From Polyangia bacterium (lineage in GTDB: Bacteria; Myxococcota_A; Polyangia; Palsa-1104; JAEUJZ01), in contig JBGAUT010000004.1 of the NCBI GenBank assembly GCA_044228505.1, forward strand, positions 3,177 to 67,176: 64,000 nucleotides of DNA, in the 5' to 3' direction. The notes under the pieces were generated by a model, which saw nothing but the letters and a program-made list of their open reading frames with translations, ran no database searches and was not told the DNA's origin. Below are positions 59 through 37,087 of this stretch, in pieces. How positions within the stretch are numbered: position 1 is the stretch's first letter; the number at the start of each line of letters is the position of its first letter. The translations under genes and the position numbers were made by a program.

Positions 59-1669
59 CTACGAAGGCTCAACTTCGGCTTGGTTCAAGTCCTTGCGCAG
101 CGTCTTACCGGCTGGATTCCGTGGCACGCGATCGGTGAATAGCACGCTGCGCGGGACTTTGTAGTCGGGCAAGTTCTCACGACAGAGCTGGGTCAGTTCT
201 TCGGTGGTGACGACCGCATGAGGCCGTAGAACGACATGGGCAATCACCACCTGTCCCCGCAGTCGATCGGCTCGCCCAGATACCGCAACATCGGCAACCG
301 CAGGATGCCGCGACAGCACTGCTTCCACCTCGCTCGGATAGACGTTGTAGCCGCTGGTGATGATGAGGTCGTCCTTGCGATCGACGATGAAGTACAGTCC
401 CTCGGTATCGCGTCGGGCCAGGTCTCCCGTATAGAGCCAGCCGTTGCGGAGTACTTTGTCGGTCAGGGTCGGATTGCCAAAATAACCGCGCATCACGACC
501 TCTCCTCGGACCGCCAATTCACCCACTTCACCGTCGGAAACTTCGCGCTCGGGATCACTCGGGTCACACAGCTTGGCAGCCAACGCCGCAAGCGGTCTCC
601 CGATCGATCCGAGCGGGCCGCCTTGTGGGAAGGGTGAGCAGTGGGTCGCACCTGCCGCTTCGGAGAGTCCATACGCTTCATAAATCGGAAGGCCGGTGAG
701 CTCGCGGTATTTGCGCTGCACCCACTCCGGTAAGGAGGCCCCACCACTCGAGGCCACACGGATGCTGGCGAGCGATTCCTTCTTGACCAGTGGATGGGAC
801 ATCAGCGCCGCCCACAGCGTCGGCACCGCTGGGAAAGACAGGGGTCGTTCGGCTTCAATCAGGCGCAGGATCGGCATCAGATCGAGGGCATCGAAACGCG
901 GCACCAAAATCAGCCGGTACCCTTTGGAAATGGTGAGGTGCAGCCCGATCGTCATGCCGAAGACATGGAAGAACGGAATCACACACAGTACGCCGGCATT
1001 GGGAAGCTCTGCTGCGCTCATCCAGATCGCACTCTGCCTGACACTGGCCAGCAGGTTGCGATGAGTTAGCATCACGCCCTTGGGAGTCCCGGTCGAGCCG
1101 CTCGTAAACTGGATCACGGCCAGGTCATCCGCGACGGATGCGGGTCGCTCGGTGGGATTTTTTGGGGGTCGAAACAACTCTTCCAGATAGCGCGGGATCG
1201 GAGTTCGCTCTGGAACCGGCAGCTTCTTTTCCAGTCCCTGTACCGAAGAGATAAAGAGGTATTTTATAAGACTCTTATCTAGTACTTTGTACAGTCCTGG
1301 CAAAAACACATCGAGCGTAAACAGCGCCACCGCCTCCGTTTCACGCAGGATGTGCAGCAGTTCACTGCCTTGGCTTTGCGGACTGACGTTCACGACCACT
1401 GCGCCGATTCGCAGCAGCGCATAGCTTGTCATCACATACGCCGGAGTATTCGGCAGCATCAGCGCAACGCGATCGCCCTTGCGGATTCCCAGCTCCGCCA
1501 TTCCCTGCTCAAGACTCCGCACCCGATTGGCCAGCTCGGAGTAGGAGATCCGCGTCTCCCCGATGGTAATCGCGATCGCGTTCGGACTACGGACCGCACT
1601 CCGTTCTAGCAGATTCGGTACACAGTCATCATCCGCCGTCGCTGGAAATCCGATGCTTACGCTGCTCAT
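59..1669 (-). CDS. Long-chain fatty-acid--CoA ligase (AMP-binding, FadD-like). Start re-called at MSSVSIGF; the ORF track extends to 1906.
   Basis: AMP-binding P-loop motif FTSGSTGTPKGV, and LYTGDLARRD plus a C-terminal KVPR motif typical of acyl-CoA synthetases. The track N-terminus overlaps the upstream esterase gene, so an internal Met was chosen. Confidence 0.85.
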   Translation of the reverse strand: MSSVSIGFPATADDDCVPNLLERSAVRSPNAIAITIGETRISYSELANRVRSLEQGMAELGIRKGDRVALMLPNTPAYVMTSYALLRIGAVVVNVSPQSQGSELLHILRETEAVALFTLDVFLPGLYKVLDKSLIKYLFISSVQGLEKKLPVPERTPIPRYLEELFRPPKNPTERPASVADDLAVIQFTSGSTGTPKGVMLTHRNLLASVRQSAIWMSAAELPNAGVLCVIPFFHVFGMTIGLHLTISKGYRLILVPRFDALDLMPILRLIEAERPLSFPAVPTLWAALMSHPLVKKESLASIRVASSGGASLPEWVQRKYRELTGLPIYEAYGLSEAAGATHCSPFPQGGPLGSIGRPLAALAAKLCDPSDPEREVSDGEVGELAVRGEVVMRGYFGNPTLTDKVLRNGWLYTGDLARRDTEGLYFIVDRKDDLIITSGYNVYPSEVEAVLSRHPAVADVAVSGRADRLRGQVVIAHVVLRPHAVVTTEELTQLCRENLPDYKVPRSVLFTDRVPRNPAGKTLRKDLNQAEVEPS

Positions 1670-1692
1670 GAGGGGTGTCCTTCCGTACAAAC

Positions 1693-2724
1693 CTAGCGAG
1701 AGTGGCGGGCAAAGAAATCCAGCAGAGCCGTGGTCGCCGAAATGTCCTTGTTGCCATCGGAACCGGGCCAGCTGTGCTTGCCTTGATCGATCGTACAGAG
1801 CGTCACATCGGATCCTTCCGCACAAGTCTGCGAAGTGTTGCACGTCACCGAGCCCATCTTGTAGCTCTGCATTGGCATTCCGGTGCAGGAATCGCGACGA
1901 GCCCACTCTGCGATCACATCCGTCACTTTCGGGAACGTACCGCTGCCACCGCCTTCATAACCAACCACCGGATCGGCGTTGCCATGGAGATGGAAAATCG
2001 ACACCGGTCGATCGGGCTTGCAGGTCGGAAACATCAGCGTTCCCGACACCGGACCAACGGCCGAAAATACGCTGGAGAGCTCGCACGCAAGCCGGTGGGT
2101 GAACATTCCGCCGTTCGAAAATCCCATCGCGTAGATCCGCTTGTCATCAATGCACAGCTCACGCTTACTGAGATCGATCATGTCGCGCACAAAGCCGACG
2201 TCATCGATCTTAAAGAGCTGCGGCTCCCCACAGCAGTTGCCCGCATTCCAGCCCGCAAGGATTCCCAGTCCCTGCGGTGCAATGGCAATGATGTTGCGTT
2301 TGTCCGCCTCGCGCTCGAGATCGATTCCCTTTAGGAAATCCGGCGCTTTGTCAGACAGTCCGTGGAACGCAAACACCAGGGAAGTCGGCTTGCTCGGATC
2401 GTAGGCAGTGGGAATATGCAAAAGATAGGTTCTCTCTTTGCCTCCCGACATGATCTTTTTGGTCGTGGTGCCGGCCGTCATCACCGCTCTGCCGGTACAA
2501 CGCGGCGGTGGCGCTTGCAAATCCGGCATCGATAGATCGATCGGATCGGCCAAGTCCTCGACCACCGTGCTGCCATCGGACTCTGTATCGAGCACCGGCT
2601 TGTCCTGTCCTCCGGACAGACAGCCGGTAAGCGCCCCGGACATCCACACGGCTACACCGACGGAGACACCGAGCCCAAGAAACCAAGATCGCTTGTCACG
2701 CTTCACTACCAGGTTACGGTTCAT
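1693..2724 (-). CDS. Esterase, PHB-depolymerase/LpqC-like alpha/beta hydrolase lipoprotein
   Basis: Lipobox LTGC follows a hydrophobic signal (MNRNLVV...). GFSNGG nucleophile elbow, and HG.. and HGNADPVV motifs of esterase/PHB depolymerase family enzymes. Confidence 0.7.
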   Translation of the reverse strand: MNRNLVVKRDKRSWFLGLGVSVGVAVWMSGALTGCLSGGQDKPVLDTESDGSTVVEDLADPIDLSMPDLQAPPPRCTGRAVMTAGTTTKKIMSGGKERTYLLHIPTAYDPSKPTSLVFAFHGLSDKAPDFLKGIDLEREADKRNIIAIAPQGLGILAGWNAGNCCGEPQLFKIDDVGFVRDMIDLSKRELCIDDKRIYAMGFSNGGMFTHRLACELSSVFSAVGPVSGTLMFPTCKPDRPVSIFHLHGNADPVVGYEGGGSGTFPKVTDVIAEWARRDSCTGMPMQSYKMGSVTCNTSQTCAEGSDVTLCTIDQGKHSWPGSDGNKDISATTALLDFFARHSR

Positions 2725-2788
2725 GGCGGGATTATAGGAACGACTCCGCGCCGCAGTAGCGAAACTTTGTGGGGAATGACAAGAACTA

Positions 2789-3805
2789 CTATTCGCGACG
2801 GCGGCGCAGGATCTGCGAGCCGCCGCTCCACTGCAGCAGAAGCTGCCCCATCGGCAGAACCGTGCCGCGATAGGAATCGAGCCTACGTCCACCGTTTTCA
2901 CATGGGCTCGGCTCGCTCCGATAGTCTACTTCATTTAGGAAAAACTGGTCACCGGTACGACGACCCCGTAGCGAATAGCGAGTCACGGTACGCACCTGCG
3001 GAGTCCCGCTACACGGAAACACGCCACGCGCACGACTTCGCAGTACGATGCGATCGAAGTAGCCAGCGAGCTTGCCGTCCATATCGACCAAGTGCCACTC
3101 CTCCACCTCGCTGTGAAGGTCACCATCACCGTCGGTCAGAGCGGTCGACTGAAGCTGCCATTCCCAGACTCCGGTGAGCTTGCGATCCGCCTCCGAGACC
3201 ACATCCCGACCGCCCCCTTCGAGCGGTAACAGAGACGTCACAGGACTACTCCGCGCCCGATAGATAAGCTGCTGTTCCCCCCCCGGCCAGCGCAGCGTCA
3301 AGCGATCGCCTTGCAGGATTCCTTCATAGCTTTTGAGCGGTGGCTTCTCGTCGCTACATGGACTCTGTTCATGATCAGCAGAGGTCTCTGTAAGGCGCAC
3401 GCGATCACCTACCATTTCGCCCAAGACCCGGAACCGTGACGACAACAAGTAACCAAGCTGACCGTTACAGCGATACGGCTTCTGATCCATCGACAGCGTG
3501 GTGACTTGGCGAAGGTAGTTGCCGCTTAGCTTGCTACCACTCTGTTGTAGGTGCCACTCCTCTTGTTCGATGCGGAGATCCCCTTGCTGAGTGGTGCCGC
3601 GCAACAGCCAGTCCCACGTACCCGTAAGCTGCTGCAAAGCGGTCGCCGGGGGGCTTTCAGTGGGAAGGCTCGGAATCGCGGACGGGGGATTTGCGGTCAG
3701 ACTCTGTTCCGATTCCTGCGGTCGCACAGTGGGTCCGTGACATGCGACAAGCCCCAGGCACCAAGGGACGAGCAGGCTCCCAATCAGGTAGACAAGGCGC
3801 TTCAT
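2789..3805 (-). CDS. Hypothetical lipoprotein with two internally duplicated roughly 100-aa modules
   Basis: Signal plus lipobox LVAC at the N-terminus. Two paralogous segments (GTWDWLL...EEWHLQQSGSKLSG...PYRCNG versus GVWEWQL...EEWHLVDMDGKLAG...FPCSG). No known domain recognised. Confidence 0.5.
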   Translation of the reverse strand: MKRLVYLIGSLLVPWCLGLVACHGPTVRPQESEQSLTANPPSAIPSLPTESPPATALQQLTGTWDWLLRGTTQQGDLRIEQEEWHLQQSGSKLSGNYLRQVTTLSMDQKPYRCNGQLGYLLSSRFRVLGEMVGDRVRLTETSADHEQSPCSDEKPPLKSYEGILQGDRLTLRWPGGEQQLIYRARSSPVTSLLPLEGGGRDVVSEADRKLTGVWEWQLQSTALTDGDGDLHSEVEEWHLVDMDGKLAGYFDRIVLRSRARGVFPCSGTPQVRTVTRYSLRGRRTGDQFFLNEVDYRSEPSPCENGGRRLDSYRGTVLPMGQLLLQWSGGSQILRRRRE

Positions 3806-3817
3806 GGGCCACGGGCG

Positions 3818-4150
3818 CTACGGAAGAACCGCCGAAATCGTGCGACGAACCAAAGCGCGGGTCTCGGGCAAAAGTGGTTTTCCGAGCGCTCGCCGCGCCA
3901 GCTGAATCGCGACGATTCCGATCAGCGCATCGATACCGGACATCACCAACAGCGCCGAGCCGAGCCCAAGTCCGCGCTGCATCAGAATCCAAATGCCAAA
4001 ACCTTGCAAAAGCAGGATCAGCATGGACAGACAAACCAAACCGAGAAACAGCAGCAGGAGTCCCGCAAACAGACGTCCCTGCTCGCGACCCAACTCCTGG
4101 CGGGCGACCTCAGCGTGGACCGAAAACAGACCACTTACCAAGCGAATCAT
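3818..4150 (-). CDS. Small two-TM membrane protein resembling the Holin-X (phage_holin_3_6) family. Start re-called at MIRLVSG.
   Basis: About 111 aa with two hydrophobic helices, a charged amphipathic N-terminus and a basic C-terminus. Family assignment is by resemblance only. Confidence 0.4.
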   Translation of the reverse strand: MIRLVSGLFSVHAEVARQELGREQGRLFAGLLLLFLGLVCLSMLILLLQGFGIWILMQRGLGLGSALLVMSGIDALIGIVAIQLARRALGKPLLPETRALVRRTISAVLP

Positions 4151-34229: not shown

Positions 34230-34853
34230 TTACCTCGACCGTTTGCCCTTCTTTGCGGTCTTCTTGCTGGTCGAACGGAAGGTATCGTCCACTCGCAGCG
34301 GCAGACCGCTCTGGATGGCCGTTTCGTGATCAAACAAAAAGACCTCGCAATACTCCCGAATACCAAGCAGCTCGCACTGTCCTTTGATCTTGTTGCGCAG
34401 TCGGTCTTGCAAAGGCCCAGCCGATAACAAAAAGCTCTGCAGCTCGTCCGTCTTCACCACAAAAGCCAGCTTGAGCCTTCGTTCTTGCGAAGGGAGCTGT
34501 CTACACACGGATGGCAGATCTGGTTCCAGCAGCGCCTTCTTCGGCAGATGATGCCAGACCGAACCGAGCACCAGCAGACAGTCCTTCGCTTTGTCGACAA
34601 ATTCCCGGTCCAGGTAATCCAGGTAATCGACGAACTGCCGCTTCTGCCGATCAGACGCTCCGCCGGTTTCAGAATAGTCTTTCAGTTCGATCAGCCACAG
34701 GATGTTGCGTTTGCGATCGAACCAACCGAAGTCCAGCTCATGAACGCCAAAATTCTTAAGCGACTTAAAACCGGCGCAGTCTTCCAGTCGAAACCAATCA
34801 CTGGTCGGCGGCTCAAAGCGCAGCCCTGATTCCAAAATCGAAGTGACAGCCAT
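34230..34853 (-). CDS. Hypothetical protein with PD-(D/E)xK-like nuclease signature. Candidate effector of a two-gene defense module.
   Basis: HELDFGWFD followed 10 aa later by ILWLIELKDY (D...hh-E-x-K). Acidic DYLDYLD segment. Basic C-tail. Lower GC than flanks. Starts 6 nt after the ATPase stop. Confidence 0.5.
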   Translation of the reverse strand: MAVTSILESGLRFEPPTSDWFRLEDCAGFKSLKNFGVHELDFGWFDRKRNILWLIELKDYSETGGASDRQKRQFVDYLDYLDREFVDKAKDCLLVLGSVWHHLPKKALLEPDLPSVCRQLPSQERRLKLAFVVKTDELQSFLLSAGPLQDRLRNKIKGQCELLGIREYCEVFLFDHETAIQSGLPLRVDDTFRSTSKKTAKKGKRSR

Positions 34854-34859
34854 GGTCGT

Positions 34860-35888
34860 CTACCGTTCCAGGTCAAGAGACACTTCACGCTGGTATAGCG
34901 CAATGGACTCATCAATGATCGGATTGTCTGGCATCCCATCCAGGAGGTCGAAGAAGTCGGAACGCACGGTCGTGCCGTCTCGGGTGAGCGAACAAAACGC
35001 GACCGAGGCTTTGCGCTGTTTGGCCAAGATATGCAATTGCTTGATTGCAAAATAGCTATGTGTTGCCAGATAGATCTGAACCCCAGCGCGGCTCAAGTCC
35101 ATCAGCATCGTCATCAATTTAACAATATAATCGGGATGTAAGTTGGTTTCCGGCTCATCCAAAAATAGGATCGAGTCTTTGCTGAGTGTCCGATTGCGTA
35201 TCAGCGTAGTCAGGATACCTAGCTTTTTGATACCTTCCGCAGTCTGCGGCATGGTGAAGGTCTGGCCACTTCTCTGAAAGCGAAACTGACCATCCGACTT
35301 GCTCTTGGCAATTTCGCCACCAAAGAGTAGCTCCAGCGACTTCAGAACTCGCTTTAGATTGGCTTCGATGTTGCCTTTGGTGGTTGGCAGTCGCAGCGCA
35401 CAGATCAAATCATAGTAGGTATCATCGAACCCAAAGATCTCCAGCGTCTCGCGGGTGGCTTCGATCGCTTCAAACGCGGTAAGCAGTTCCTTAGGTGGAA
35501 TAAAAATAGCGCTAAGTGCTTCTTGTGGCGCGGCGTCTTCAGTGGCAGTCGTGACTTTTTGATTCGCGGTGCTACCGTAGCTAAATAGATAGTTGTCTCC
35601 GTGTAGCGTACAGTCCACTTGGGTACGCTTTTCACCCCGGTGAACCAGCTCACCGATCGATTCGGTCTGAAACGTCCAGATCAGCTTGTTCGCAAGCACT
35701 TCCCGCCACGCCACCTTGGGCCTTCTCTTCGAGAACTCTTCGACGCTCTTGGCTAGGCAATAGAGCAGCTTCAGTAGATGACTCTTGCCGGTGTCGTTCC
35801 GACCCACGATGACGTTGATCTGCCCGTGGTGCTTCCAGTGGAAGCTCTCGAATAATGCAAAGTTCTTGATGACGAGGTTCGAGAACAT
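34860..35888 (-). CDS. Compact ABC/SMC-type ATPase (AAA_21/AAA_15-like). Candidate sensor/motor of a defense module.
   Basis: SMC/RecF-like N-terminal strand LVIKNFALFESF, Walker A GRNDTGKSHLL, Walker B/D-loop ILFLDEPETNLHP and H-loop LATHS. AT-rich codon usage atypical for this genome. Confidence 0.75.
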   Translation of the reverse strand: MFSNLVIKNFALFESFHWKHHGQINVIVGRNDTGKSHLLKLLYCLAKSVEEFSKRRPKVAWREVLANKLIWTFQTESIGELVHRGEKRTQVDCTLHGDNYLFSYGSTANQKVTTATEDAAPQEALSAIFIPPKELLTAFEAIEATRETLEIFGFDDTYYDLICALRLPTTKGNIEANLKRVLKSLELLFGGEIAKSKSDGQFRFQRSGQTFTMPQTAEGIKKLGILTTLIRNRTLSKDSILFLDEPETNLHPDYIVKLMTMLMDLSRAGVQIYLATHSYFAIKQLHILAKQRKASVAFCSLTRDGTTVRSDFFDLLDGMPDNPIIDESIALYQREVSLDLER

Positions 35889-35989
35889 TGCGCGGCAGCA
35901 TAGTCACGAGGCCCTCAGATTGCGAGCCTAGAAGCGTCGACCCTGGACCGTACGGTCCGCGTCACCCAGCAAGCCCCAACTCATCCCCA

Positions 35990-36199
35990 CCGCAAACCTC
36001 TTTGCGACCGGGATGATCCAGGTCTTCCCTGCCGCAAACCTCTTTGCGCCTGGGATGATCCAGGTCTTCCCTGCCGCAAGCTCCTTTGCGATCGGGATGA
36101 TCTAGGTCTTCCCTGCCGCAAACCTCTTTGCGCCTGGGATGATCCAGGTCTTTGCTGTCGCAAACTGCTTGGCGATCGGGATGGTCGGCGTCTTTTTTT
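35990..36199. repeat. Tandem direct repeats, 42-bp unit x about 4.5 copies, each containing the hairpin cgcaaaCCTCtttgcg. Intergenic, upstream of the ATPase gene.
   Basis: Units at 35990-36031, 36032-36073, 36074-36115, 36116-36157 and a degenerate 36158-36199. Unit ccgcaaacctctttgcgNNNgggatgatccaggtcttccctg. No unique spacers. Confidence 0.85.
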
Positions 36200-36244
36200 C
36201 TTATTTGACTTGTCGCTTGTGGATCGGCTGCTACCCCTACTGAC

Positions 36245-37087
36245 ATGACCAAAAAACCTACTAGCAAGTCTGCATCCCCCAAGACCCCCCACCCGACCAC
36301 ACCGGCGGACCCGCCGCCCTCGCTCAAGAACAGCTTCGACGCGTTTTTGGCCGAAGCGAACCTGCTGCCCAAAGAAAAGGTGGTGCCGCTCAAAGTCGAC
36401 GTGAACCTGGTATTTGCCAACGTCCAGCAGGGAATCCTGTCGGTGCAGCCGCAGCTGACCCGCTTGCGCAGCGAGCTGCCGATGCTACATGTCGACGGGC
36501 TGATGAAGCTGCCCAGGCTGGCTGAGGCGCTGCTCTATGCCCATGGCGAGGCGATCCGCCACAGCCAGCCGGTGAAGCGCGCCGAGATGGAGGCCAAGCT
36601 CGTCGAGCTTCAGTCCCTGCGCGAAAGCATGCTGCTGCAAGCCGAGGTGTTTGCCTTGGTGGGCCTTGTCCCCGAAGCCCGCGTCGCCCAGATTCGGGCG
36701 GGGAAGGGCCTGTTCGACGCTGCCCAGGATGGGGTGGCGCTGGCGGATTTGTATGGGGCGTATCGGGGGCAGATTGCGGGGAAGCATCCGTTTTCGGACG
36801 CGCAGATTGCGCGGGTGGCAGAGCTTGGGCATGCCCTGATGAAGGTGATTACGCCGGAGGGGGCGCGGGCTTCGGTCAGCTCTGCGGCGGTGAAGGCGAT
36901 GGACGAGCGCGACCGCATCTACTCGCTGCTCCTGCTGCGTCACGGGGAGCTGCGGCGGGCGGGCTATTACTTGTTCGGCGATGAGATCGACGAAAAAGTC
37001 CCGACGCTCGGGGCCCGTGCCGGCAAGCGCCGCGAGCCCGAAGCGCCCCTGCCTGCTCCCGCCGCCCCCGAACACCCCGCACCGTAA
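36245..37087 (+). CDS. Hypothetical protein with Pro/Thr/Lys-rich N-terminus
   Basis: 280-aa ORF with normal codon bias. No recognisable domain. 92 nt upstream of MoxR. Confidence 0.45.
   Translation: MTKKPTSKSASPKTPHPTTPADPPPSLKNSFDAFLAEANLLPKEKVVPLKVDVNLVFANVQQGILSVQPQLTRLRSELPMLHVDGLMKLPRLAEALLYAHGEAIRHSQPVKRAEMEAKLVELQSLRESMLLQAEVFALVGLVPEARVAQIRAGKGLFDAAQDGVALADLYGAYRGQIAGKHPFSDAQIARVAELGHALMKVITPEGARASVSSAAVKAMDERDRIYSLLLLRHGELRRAGYYLFGDEIDEKVPTLGARAGKRREPEAPLPAPAAPEHPAP

Follow-up and report, generated by a model that had tools for sequence, protein, structure and literature searches.

The question raised by this locus is whether two short genes in a low-GC stretch form an undescribed anti-phage module, as a preliminary description based on the sequence had proposed. 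The analyzed window was a 64,000-nt stretch of a Polyangia bacterium contig (JBGAUT010000004.1). ORF A occupies positions 34,860–35,888 and ORF B positions 34,230–34,853 of the minus strand; both start with ATG and encode proteins of 342 and 207 aa, respectively. The genes are co-oriented, with a gap of exactly 6 nt from A to B (tag-acgacc-atg). Coordinates, sizes, orientation and gap had all been given correctly in the preliminary description, as had the quoted motifs of both proteins, which were found at the residues listed below; the placement of both genes on the minus strand was absent from it. HMM E-values of 1e-120 and 1e-32 place the two ORFs far beyond chance.

The GC-content of the pair is 0.521 versus 0.618 for the whole window, and no other segment of this size in the window is as poor in GC (z = −4.75 relative to all of them). 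The AT-rich string cccgattatattgttaaattgatg falls within ORF A. The low-GC claim was thus borne out, with the upstream spacer at 0.584; the flanks, put at roughly 68% GC, measured about 62–67%, and the genes immediately adjoining the pair have a GC-content of 0.61–0.66. GC3 is 0.63–0.65 in the pair compared to 0.79–0.86 in the flanking genes, and this value of about 0.2 below that of the host agrees with the proposed foreign composition. The pair stands alone, with an aldo-keto reductase gene on one side and a MoxR-DUF58-BatA cluster on the other. According to a Pfam scan of the flanking ORFs, these are housekeeping rather than defence genes.

The pair was assigned by matches to the PADLOC-DB HMM library together with gene adjacency. 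HEC-02 (Hma-embedded candidate 02), included in PADLOC-DB v2.0.0, comprises an ABC ATPase and a PD-(D/E)xK protein with a (D/E/Q)xK motif, HEC-02B, which was termed NERD-like on structural grounds (10.1101/2024.01.29.577857). When cloned, HEC-02 lowered the plaquing of phages on E. coli, an effect that depended on both genes (Payne et al., bioRxiv 10.1101/2024.01.29.577857). Protein A matched the HEC-02A model PDLC04214 with an E-value of 2.3e-120 (residues 1–340 on profile positions 1–337 of 338) and a second HEC-02A model, PDLC04213, with 2.3e-78. Protein B matched the HEC-02B model PDLC04224 with an E-value of 2.1e-32 (residues 5–186 on profile positions 3–175 of 182), and three more HEC-02B models likewise matched it. 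The next-best PADLOC systems (AriA, NsnB, PD-T4-4, AbiL, Old, PtuA, GajA) reached 1e-22 or weaker. Identity to HEC-02 pairs of other lineages was 44–55% for A and 27–39% for B.

These full-length matches to a system published in 2024 contradict the claim that the pair is undescribed and matches no named system. A clean PADLOC assignment had been named in advance as evidence against novelty, and the HMMs place the pair cleanly in HEC-02. The pair is an ordinary further copy of an already catalogued system and, judging from its sequence, very probably a stand-alone chromosomal copy of the HEC-02-type anti-phage defence pair. The conserved pairing, the defence neighbours of some copies elsewhere (BREX-2, Septu) and the low GC-content speak for this reading as well; against it stand the moderate identity to pairs of other lineages, the retention of lysine K58 of B in only 79 of 103 homologues, the housekeeping neighbours and the apparent vertical inheritance. 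The pair shares with HEC-02 both protein families over the full length of the HMMs, the gene order and tight coupling, the predicted ABC-ATPase fold of A, and the predicted NERD-like PD-(D/E)xK fold and (D/E)xK motif of B. It differs in lying outside Hma or any other defence system and in the greater length of B in this clade (207 aa versus a 182-position profile). Phage protection is known from another representative, in E. coli, whereas the copy described here is known from sequence. The discovery value is therefore small, as HEC-02 is already catalogued in PADLOC-DB v2.0.0 and experimentally validated; the earlier motif-level reading was accurate, but novelty could be judged only with a look into the databases.

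Protein A carries the N-terminal string LVIKNFALFESF at residues 5–16, followed by a Walker A motif (GRNDTGKS, G29–S36; 35,781–35,804), a signature-like motif (M213-x-Q-x-A-x-G-x-K-K222), Walker B with the D-loop (ILFLDEPE, I240–E247; 35,148–35,171) and the H-loop residue H277 (35,058–35,060) within LATHS (residues 274–278), all on the minus strand. These four motifs are intact in A and invariant among 49 homologues, the invariant residues including G29, N31, D32, T33, G34, K35, D244, E245, H251 and H277. Pfam AAA_21 and AAA_15 matched A with E-values of 1.2e-21 and 2.3e-18, and weak N-terminal matches to Pfam SMC_N and NCBIfam RecF were also obtained. The AF2 model (pLDDT 89.4, pTM 0.90) resembled the heads of Rad50, SMC and the PtuA proteins of retrons and Septu in a Foldseek search against the PDB (E about 1e-13 to 1e-11), and RecN heads as well. 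The 342 residues make up the ABC head only, and the Rad50/SMC coiled-coil insertion is lacking. By its motifs and predicted structure, A is a compact ABC-type ATPase, not an AAA+ protein, with intact nucleotide-binding motifs, which upholds the ABC/SMC-type and AAA_21/AAA_15 reading of the preliminary description. An apparent A–B fusion, the 532-aa Sorangium protein P0274, was rejected, its extra 190 residues being N-terminal and unrelated to B.

In protein B, the motifs HELDFGWFD (residues 38–46) and LWLIELK (residues 52–58) form the putative catalytic core E39-x-D41 ... E56-x-K58 (34,680–34,739, minus strand). They are separated by five residues, not by ten as reported earlier, and D41 and E56 by 14. 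D41 is present in all of 103 B homologues, and E56 in nearly all. The family-wide conserved residues are E8, E39, D41, E56, K88 and D91, a pattern that provides a concrete mutagenesis list for HEC-02; K88 and D91 lie on a helix (34,581–34,592, minus strand). K88 is kept in 100 of the 103 homologues and K58, the canonical lysine on the strand, in 79, a hint that the catalytic lysine may have been relocated in the B family. Most family members have 170–185 aa, and the excess length of B consists of an insert around residues 61–80, where the model is poor, and a Lys-rich disordered tail (residues 195–207). The top structural matches were the DNA endonucleases Upx, FokI, BstEII and Bse634I. Upx (PDB 9wuf; PMC13099982), an anti-phage nuclease, combines two PD-(D/E)xK domains in one chain of 1212 aa and lacks a separate ABC ATPase partner, and its likeness to B is at the fold level only. 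The earlier PD-(D/E)xK reading of B agrees with these endonuclease matches and with the conservation of D41 and E56, and B is accordingly predicted, from its model and sequence, to be a PD-(D/E)xK-fold, NERD-like protein with a (D/E)xK motif.

With NERD (PF08378, found for example at the N-terminus of BREX-2 PglW), B shares the E-x-D ... hhE-x-K arrangement on two consecutive strands. By sequence, however, the B family appears as a separate PD-(D/E)xK family that has no Pfam model, since none of the 103 members reached Pfam NERD at an E-value of 0.1 or better (PglW N-terminus control, 7.5e-20). An hhalign comparison of the B-family alignment with PglW NERD gave a probability of 3.6%, over 26 columns that correspond exactly to the E-x-D ... 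E-x-K core. B itself gave no match to PF08378 at an E-value of 1 or better and zero matches in the Pfam and NCBIfam libraries; across all 103 members, Pfam returned scattered single chance matches only, none of them to NERD.

Other ATPase–nuclease systems are more distant. PARIS likewise has two genes, an OLD/SMC-like ABC ATPase and a separate nuclease, and AriA is locally similar to A (PADLOC, 6.4e-22). However, the match is limited to the Walker B and signature region, AriA is longer (about 460 aa versus 342 aa), and its HMM score on A falls some 100 orders of magnitude short of that of HEC-02A. AriB is a TOPRIM (DUF4435) protein, in contrast to the PD-(D/E)xK protein B, in which Pfam and PADLOC found no TOPRIM or AriB match. 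Septu and retron I-A PtuA-PtuB also combine an ABC ATPase with a nuclease, and PtuA heads rank high among the structural matches of A, but PtuA HMMs reach only 1e-12 on A. Their nuclease, PtuB, belongs to the HNH type; B is of the PD-(D/E)xK type, and neither Pfam nor PADLOC matched it to PtuB or HNH. In Gabija and OLD, TOPRIM is fused to the ATPase, while A is an ABC head alone; the GajA and Old HMMs matched A in the Walker B region only (1e-11 to 1e-14).

In PARIS, the best-understood mechanistic model, recognition of a phage protein by the ATPase scaffold sets the nuclease free. By analogy with PARIS (AriA/AriB) and with Septu or retron PtuA/PtuB, A, as HEC-02A, is presumed to be the sensor and regulator of the system, most likely acting as infection sensor and switch, and B, as HEC-02B, is presumed to be its nuclease effector, most likely a small NERD-like PD-(D/E)xK nuclease. 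A would oligomerize in an ATP-dependent manner and, in that form, hold B or regulate it, and a phage-derived cue (a protein or DNA structure) would shift the state of the ATPase. B would then be freed or activated for metal-dependent nucleic acid cleavage at D41/E56/K58, with K88 contributing from the following helix. Phage replication would be halted directly or via abortion of the infected cell. We give this scheme of a sensor ATPase and an effector DNase roughly even chances. An abortive mode closer to PARIS itself is possible though distinctly less probable: A would detect a phage anti-restriction protein, and B would cleave host tRNA, other RNA or host DNA instead of phage DNA, so that the infected cell is arrested or killed. 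The predicted fold of B, which is not TOPRIM, and the DNA endonucleases heading its structural matches argue against this mode within HEC-02.

The two genes travel together. A is directly upstream of B in the close relatives L001–L006, and A–B adjacency recurs in another 10 distinct loci, spread over four phyla (L007–L009, L011–L013, L015, L016, L020 and L021). Taxa with the A-then-B pair include Myxococcota, Cyanobacteriota, and Beta- and Gammaproteobacteria, and carriers include a Pseudanabaena plasmid, a Polaromonas plasmid and Marithrix. Some copies are located on conjugative plasmids; in Polaromonas pPNAP01, the pair lies within a BREX-2 operon, between pglX and pglY. Other Polyangia have it at different chromosomal sites. 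A locus search with a 13-sequence B alignment returned five loci. The B family is small and patchy, with 279 representative clusters among 1.84 billion. The co-conservation expected for the pair was thus confirmed across four phyla. Of the ATPase–nuclease module of anti-phage type that had been proposed, the architecture, co-conservation and foreign composition hold, and the undescribed status does not, the system being the known HEC-02.

Relative L001 has the pair at the same chromosomal site, with flanking proteins 72–95% identical, and the pair therefore appears to be vertically inherited. A Septu system adjoins the HEC-02 pair in L001 (PADLOC HMMs, PtuA 5e-50, PtuB 2e-44); with Septu at the same site in this sister genome, the site is a small defence hotspot. 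No tRNA was found within 10 kb of the pair, the Pfam scan of flanking ORFs revealed no integrase or transposase domains, and the direct and inverted repeats on either side measure just 12–24 nt with 67–92% identity, which is chance level. The absence of these insertion signs and the site shared with L001 favour an older acquisition, and a recent island was rejected. A phage-borne origin was likewise rejected: when 50,697 phage records were searched with B by tblastn, no copy turned up in phages or prophages. The locus thus documents a stand-alone HEC-02 pair in a Polyangia-related genome of high GC-content, where it is apparently passed on at a constant position.

Intact genes could still belong to a relic that is unexpressed or non-functional in this genome. 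Decayed copies do occur elsewhere: the Sorangium L010 copy is broken by an IS110-like ORF, and B is truncated in Oscillatoria L018. In the spacer upstream of A, a promoter and terminator scan gave nothing above shuffled expectation, and no clear Shine-Dalgarno sequence was found upstream of the genes; the scan relied on the sigma-70 consensus, which is uninformative for a high-GC Myxococcota-like genome. Here the two ORFs match their profiles over the full length, no catalytic residue has been lost, and both genes are conserved in L001 without frameshifts, at 79% (A) and 57% (B) identity, implying purifying selection. An inactive relic is therefore very unlikely.

Abortive-infection systems often act like toxin–antitoxin pairs, and the defence and addiction readings of the pair are for this reason not fully exclusive. 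A purely selfish addiction module without any defence function, in which B is a toxic nuclease, A its neutraliser and post-segregational killing the means of persistence, is nevertheless slightly less probable still than a relic. The plasmid-borne copies would suit such a module, as would the designation of AriA as 'antitoxin' by its PDB depositors and the Pfam label of AAA_21, 'putative AbiEii toxin, type IV TA system', which is a family name and not a tested function of A. The phage records, on the other hand, yielded no copies, and HEC-02 protection is phage-specific and requires both genes (10.1101/2024.01.29.577857).

The least probable reading sees in the pair a module for DNA repair or recombination, domesticated or housekeeping, similar to SbcCD or RecN/RecF and without immune function: the resemblance of the A model to Rad50, SMC and RecN heads, the weak SMC_N and RecF matches, the site shared with L001 and the housekeeping neighbours point that way, but the missing coiled-coil insertion, the small and patchy B family, the copies on conjugative plasmids and within BREX-2, the variable sites in other Polyangia with loss or truncation in some genomes, the low GC3 and the phage protection by a tested HEC-02 (10.1101/2024.01.29.577857) all argue against it.

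Within the HEC-02 assignment, a functionally distinct Polyangia-type sub-variant is improbable. The features in its favour would be the B insert at about residues 61–80, the Lys-rich tail, K88, a 42-bp tandem array, and the hotspot location with foreign GC; should any of them reflect a novel trigger, target or mode of regulation, the copy would add a mechanism to HEC-02. The array lies in the divergent intergenic spacer between HEC-02A and a 280-aa gene (35,889–36,244 on the ORF map; the gene follows at 36,245–37,087, plus strand), which presumably holds the promoter of the HEC-02 operon. It comprises 4.6 copies of the 42-bp repeat at 35,990–36,183 (TRF score 276–318), each unit containing two short palindromes. 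Rfam assigned no family to the spacer or the array, and an exact-match scan of metagenome contigs with the 30-nt repeat core returned no match. Nowhere else in the window does the array occur (0 expected by chance), and it might act as a dedicated regulatory element, of either the HEC-02 operon or the divergent 280-aa gene. In relative L001, the repeats at its position are all degenerate, and the same array is present in the independent assembly L004.

The two genes stand in the six-frame ORF list as co-oriented, ATG-initiated ORFs on the minus strand: gene A, encoding a 342-aa ABC ATPase (34860–35888), and gene B, encoding a 207-aa PD-(D/E)xK-fold protein (34230–34853). The gap between them, read from the sequence as ...cgg tag acgacc atg gct..., is exactly 6 nt, in agreement with the preliminary description. 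Searches against PADLOC-DB assigned both products to the HEC-02 defence system. Protein A matched HEC-02A (PDLC04214) with an E-value of 2.3e-120, its residues 1–340 covering positions 1–337 of the 338-position profile, and protein B matched HEC-02B (PDLC04224) at 2.1e-32 (residues 5–186 on profile positions 3–175 of 182). The near misses (AriA, 6e-22; PD-T4-4, 2e-19; AbiL, 7e-18; Old, 4e-14; PtuA, 2e-12; GajA, 6e-12), among them all the systems to which A had been likened, scored approximately 100 orders of magnitude below the HEC-02A match. In Pfam, A matched AAA_21 (1.2e-21) and AAA_15 (2.3e-18), as had been anticipated, and in NCBIfam it gave only local, sub-threshold matches; B had no match in either database. 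It is thus highly probable that the two genes form an HEC-02-type defence pair. The initial view that they were undescribed and fitted no named system does not hold, since PADLOC-DB assigns them cleanly to HEC-02, which has already been described. The proposed architecture, a compact ABC/SMC-type ATPase with a PD-(D/E)xK-like protein, is supported by Pfam, PADLOC, motifs and structural models.

A full-text literature search for HEC-02 gave one relevant source, entitled [quoted passage not shown] (Payne et al., bioRxiv 10.1101/2024.01.29.577857), where HEC denotes a Hma-embedded candidate. According to this work, HEC-02 consists of an ABC ATPase (HEC-02A) and a NERD-like protein (HEC-02B), the latter a member of the PD-(D/E)xK superfamily with a (D/E/Q)xK motif. 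Expression of one representative in E. coli MG1655 deltaRM lowered phage plaquing, an effect that depended on both genes (10.1101/2024.01.29.577857). This published phage-specific phenotype contradicts a reading of the pair as a pure addiction module, although such a role would not strictly exclude defence. The window therefore contains a new, stand-alone copy of an already described and experimentally supported system, in a Polyangia-related genome. The labels of two further PADLOC HMMs appear to be interchanged: "HEC-02B" PDLC04146 matches the ATPase over its full length (1.8e-57), and "HEC-02A" PDLC04145 matches the nuclease of a Pseudanabaena plasmid locus, L015 (5e-6). They probably represent a second HEC-02 subtype with reversed gene order.

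Every motif string quoted in the preliminary description was located. Protein A carries LVIKNFALFESF (residues 5–16), GRNDTGKS (29–36), ILFLDEPE (240–247) and LATHS (274–278). Its homologues, more than 1,100 cluster representatives at E ≤ 1e-10 and all generically named, belong for the most part to Cyanobacteriota, Myxococcota and Proteobacteria. Across 49 homologues, invariant or nearly invariant residues comprised the Walker A positions G29, N31, D32, T33, G34 and K35, a family-specific motif F154-D-D-T-Y-Y-D-L161, a signature-like motif M213-x-Q-x-A-x-G-x-K-K222, the Walker B pair D244-E245, the following L250-H251-P252, and the H-loop residue H277. The AlphaFold2 model (pLDDT 89.4, pTM 0.90) resembles the heads of Rad50, SMC, retron I-A and Septu PtuA, and RecN (E ~1e-13 to 1e-11, TM ~0.5–0.6). 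There is no solved structure for the A family, and its profile gave only local matches among PDB sequences (PtuA, Eco8 OLD, GajA, UvrA, AriA). These motifs and the model agree with the ABC/SMC-type reading and describe a compact ABC ATPase head that lacks a coiled coil and is predicted to be catalytically competent.

Protein B contains HELDFGWFD (residues 38–46) and LWLIELK (52–58), separated by 5 residues rather than the 10 originally stated. Its family is small and distinct: a word-indexed search returned only 14 relatives, and an exhaustive profile search, with an E-value cutoff of 0.001, identified 279 representative clusters among 1.84 billion, mostly 165–205 aa long. In an alignment of 103 full-length members, D41 was kept in all 103, E56 in 101 (D in the other two), E8 in 100, E39 in 95 (D in four more) and D91 in 92. 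The canonical (D/E)xK lysine, K58, was kept in only 79 members, with substitutes including R, T, S, F and E, whereas K88, located on the helix after the K58 strand, was kept in 100, a hint that in some members at least K88 may be the essential one. The AlphaFold2 model, built on 13 sequences, was confident (pLDDT 85.8, pTM 0.83). D41 opens strand 42–46, E56-x-K58 lies on strand 51–60, and K88 and D91 are on the next long helix (74–100), so the modelled layout is that of a canonical PD-(D/E)xK fold. This layout, together with the conservation of D41 and E56, bears out the nuclease-fold reading of B. The best structural neighbours were DNA endonucleases, and several others were growth-arresting toxins.

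By sequence, B is not a member of the Pfam NERD family: none of the 103 members matched PF08378, whereas the control, the N-terminus of PglW, matched at 7.5e-20. In an hhalign comparison with the PglW NERD domain, only the E-x-D ... E-x-K core was aligned (probability 3.6%). "NERD-like" fairly describes the motif and fold of B but does not imply family membership.

HMMs built from the A and B alignments were run on all ORFs of the fetched loci, and the pair proved to be co-conserved in Myxococcota, cyanobacterial and proteobacterial loci. B directly follows A in organisms closely related to that of the window (L001–L006), Polyangium and Byssovorax MAGs (L007–L009, L011), two short metagenome contigs (L012, L013), Candidatus Marithrix (L020, L021), and on plasmids pPSE7367.01 of Pseudanabaena PCC 7367 (L015) and pPNAP01 of Polaromonas naphthalenivorans (L016). 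Both plasmid pairs matched HEC-02A and HEC-02B strongly (3.5e-125 and 3.9e-71; 4.6e-116 and 3e-85). The pPNAP01 pair (NC_008757.1, 180693–182312) lies within a BREX-2 operon, flanked by pglX and pglY, in the order pglW, ATPase, pglX, HEC-02A, HEC-02B, pglY, pglZ, brxD, helicase, which independently repeats the embedded-defence context. Its genes are annotated merely as "ATP-binding protein" and "hypothetical protein". Between lineages, A was always better conserved than B (44–55% versus 27–39% identity). Sorangium sp. So ce1128 (CP181432.1; L010, 6542–8492) has a decayed HEC-02 copy: A is absent, B begins only at the position corresponding to residue ~36, and a 363-aa ORF on the opposite strand, judged by eye to be an IS110-like transposase, abuts B upstream. 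In an Oscillatoria genome (JGI 3300057162; L018, 9038–9400), A is intact and the downstream 120-aa ORF covers only B profile positions 1–78, so the nuclease is probably truncated or pseudogenised. Locus L014 showed no A match, but only ~270 nt of contig lie upstream of its B gene.

No defence system surrounds the pair in the window. Its downstream neighbours are genes for an aldo-keto reductase, a 120-aa protein and a Ser/Thr kinase; upstream are a divergent gene for a 280-aa protein (36245–37087, plus strand) and then a MoxR-DUF58-BatA cluster. Neither Pfam nor PADLOC matched the 280-aa protein. L001 encodes a homologue with 72% identity, and tblastn gave a weaker match (31% identity) in Byssovorax L011 at 775–1437, ~5.5 kb upstream of that locus's HEC-02 pair. 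GC content is 0.521 in the pair, 0.618 over the whole window and 0.61–0.66 in neighbouring genes, and GC3 of the pair is 0.63–0.65 versus 0.79–0.86 in flanking genes. The suggested low-GC islet is thus real, the pair being the GC minimum of the window (z = −4.75 versus all other same-length windows), but the figure of about 68% GC for the flanks was somewhat too high. Nothing around the pair pointed to a recent insertion: no tRNA or convincing flanking repeats were found, and no integrase or transposase domains among the neighbours scanned.

In L001/L002, a metagenomic relative, gene order is as in the window and the pair, likewise low in GC (GC3 0.58–0.60), occupies the identical site. Flanking proteins are 72–95% identical to those of the window, A 79% and B 57%. 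The simplest reading is acquisition before the two lineages split, followed by vertical descent with faster divergence of B and incomplete amelioration. Full-length ORFs, intact motifs and conservation between relatives contradict the notion that the pair is a dead relic. A housekeeping repair module is contradicted by the patchy distribution, the copies on plasmids and within BREX, and the foreign composition. L001 also encodes a Septu system (1500–3889; in L002, 750–3139; PtuA 5e-50, PtuB 2e-44 by PADLOC) between MoxR and the 280-aa gene homologue, one gene from the HEC-02 pair. With this insertion absent from the window, the site acts as a small hotspot of variable defence content. Elsewhere in Polyangia, the pair is found at different sites, which fits mobility over longer timescales.

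Our own analysis supports membership of HEC-02 and the folds with their intact catalytic residues, and places both genes in a co-conserved operon of foreign composition. PARIS, Septu and retron PtuAB are mechanistically understood pairs of an ABC ATPase and a nuclease. By analogy with them, A would oligomerise and hold B inactive or unrecruited until a phage cue shifts the ATP-dependent state of A. B might then cut nucleic acid through D41, E56 and K58, helped by K88 on the next helix; it could act on phage DNA, as a direct defence, or on nucleic acid of the host, leading to abortive infection. We give this scheme of a sensor ATPase and an effector DNase roughly even odds. The remaining interest lies in the HEC-02 mechanism, the stronger conservation of K88 than K58 across the B family, and a 42-bp tandem array upstream.

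This array (35990–36183; 4.6 copies, 83–90% matches) lies in the spacer between A and the 280-aa gene (35889–36244). Each unit contains a pair of short, operator-like palindromes, CGCAAA-n4-TTTGCG and CCTGG-n6-CCAGG. Rfam gave no match to the array, and metagenome contigs gave no exact one; the array occurs once in the window and is identical in the independent assembly L004.
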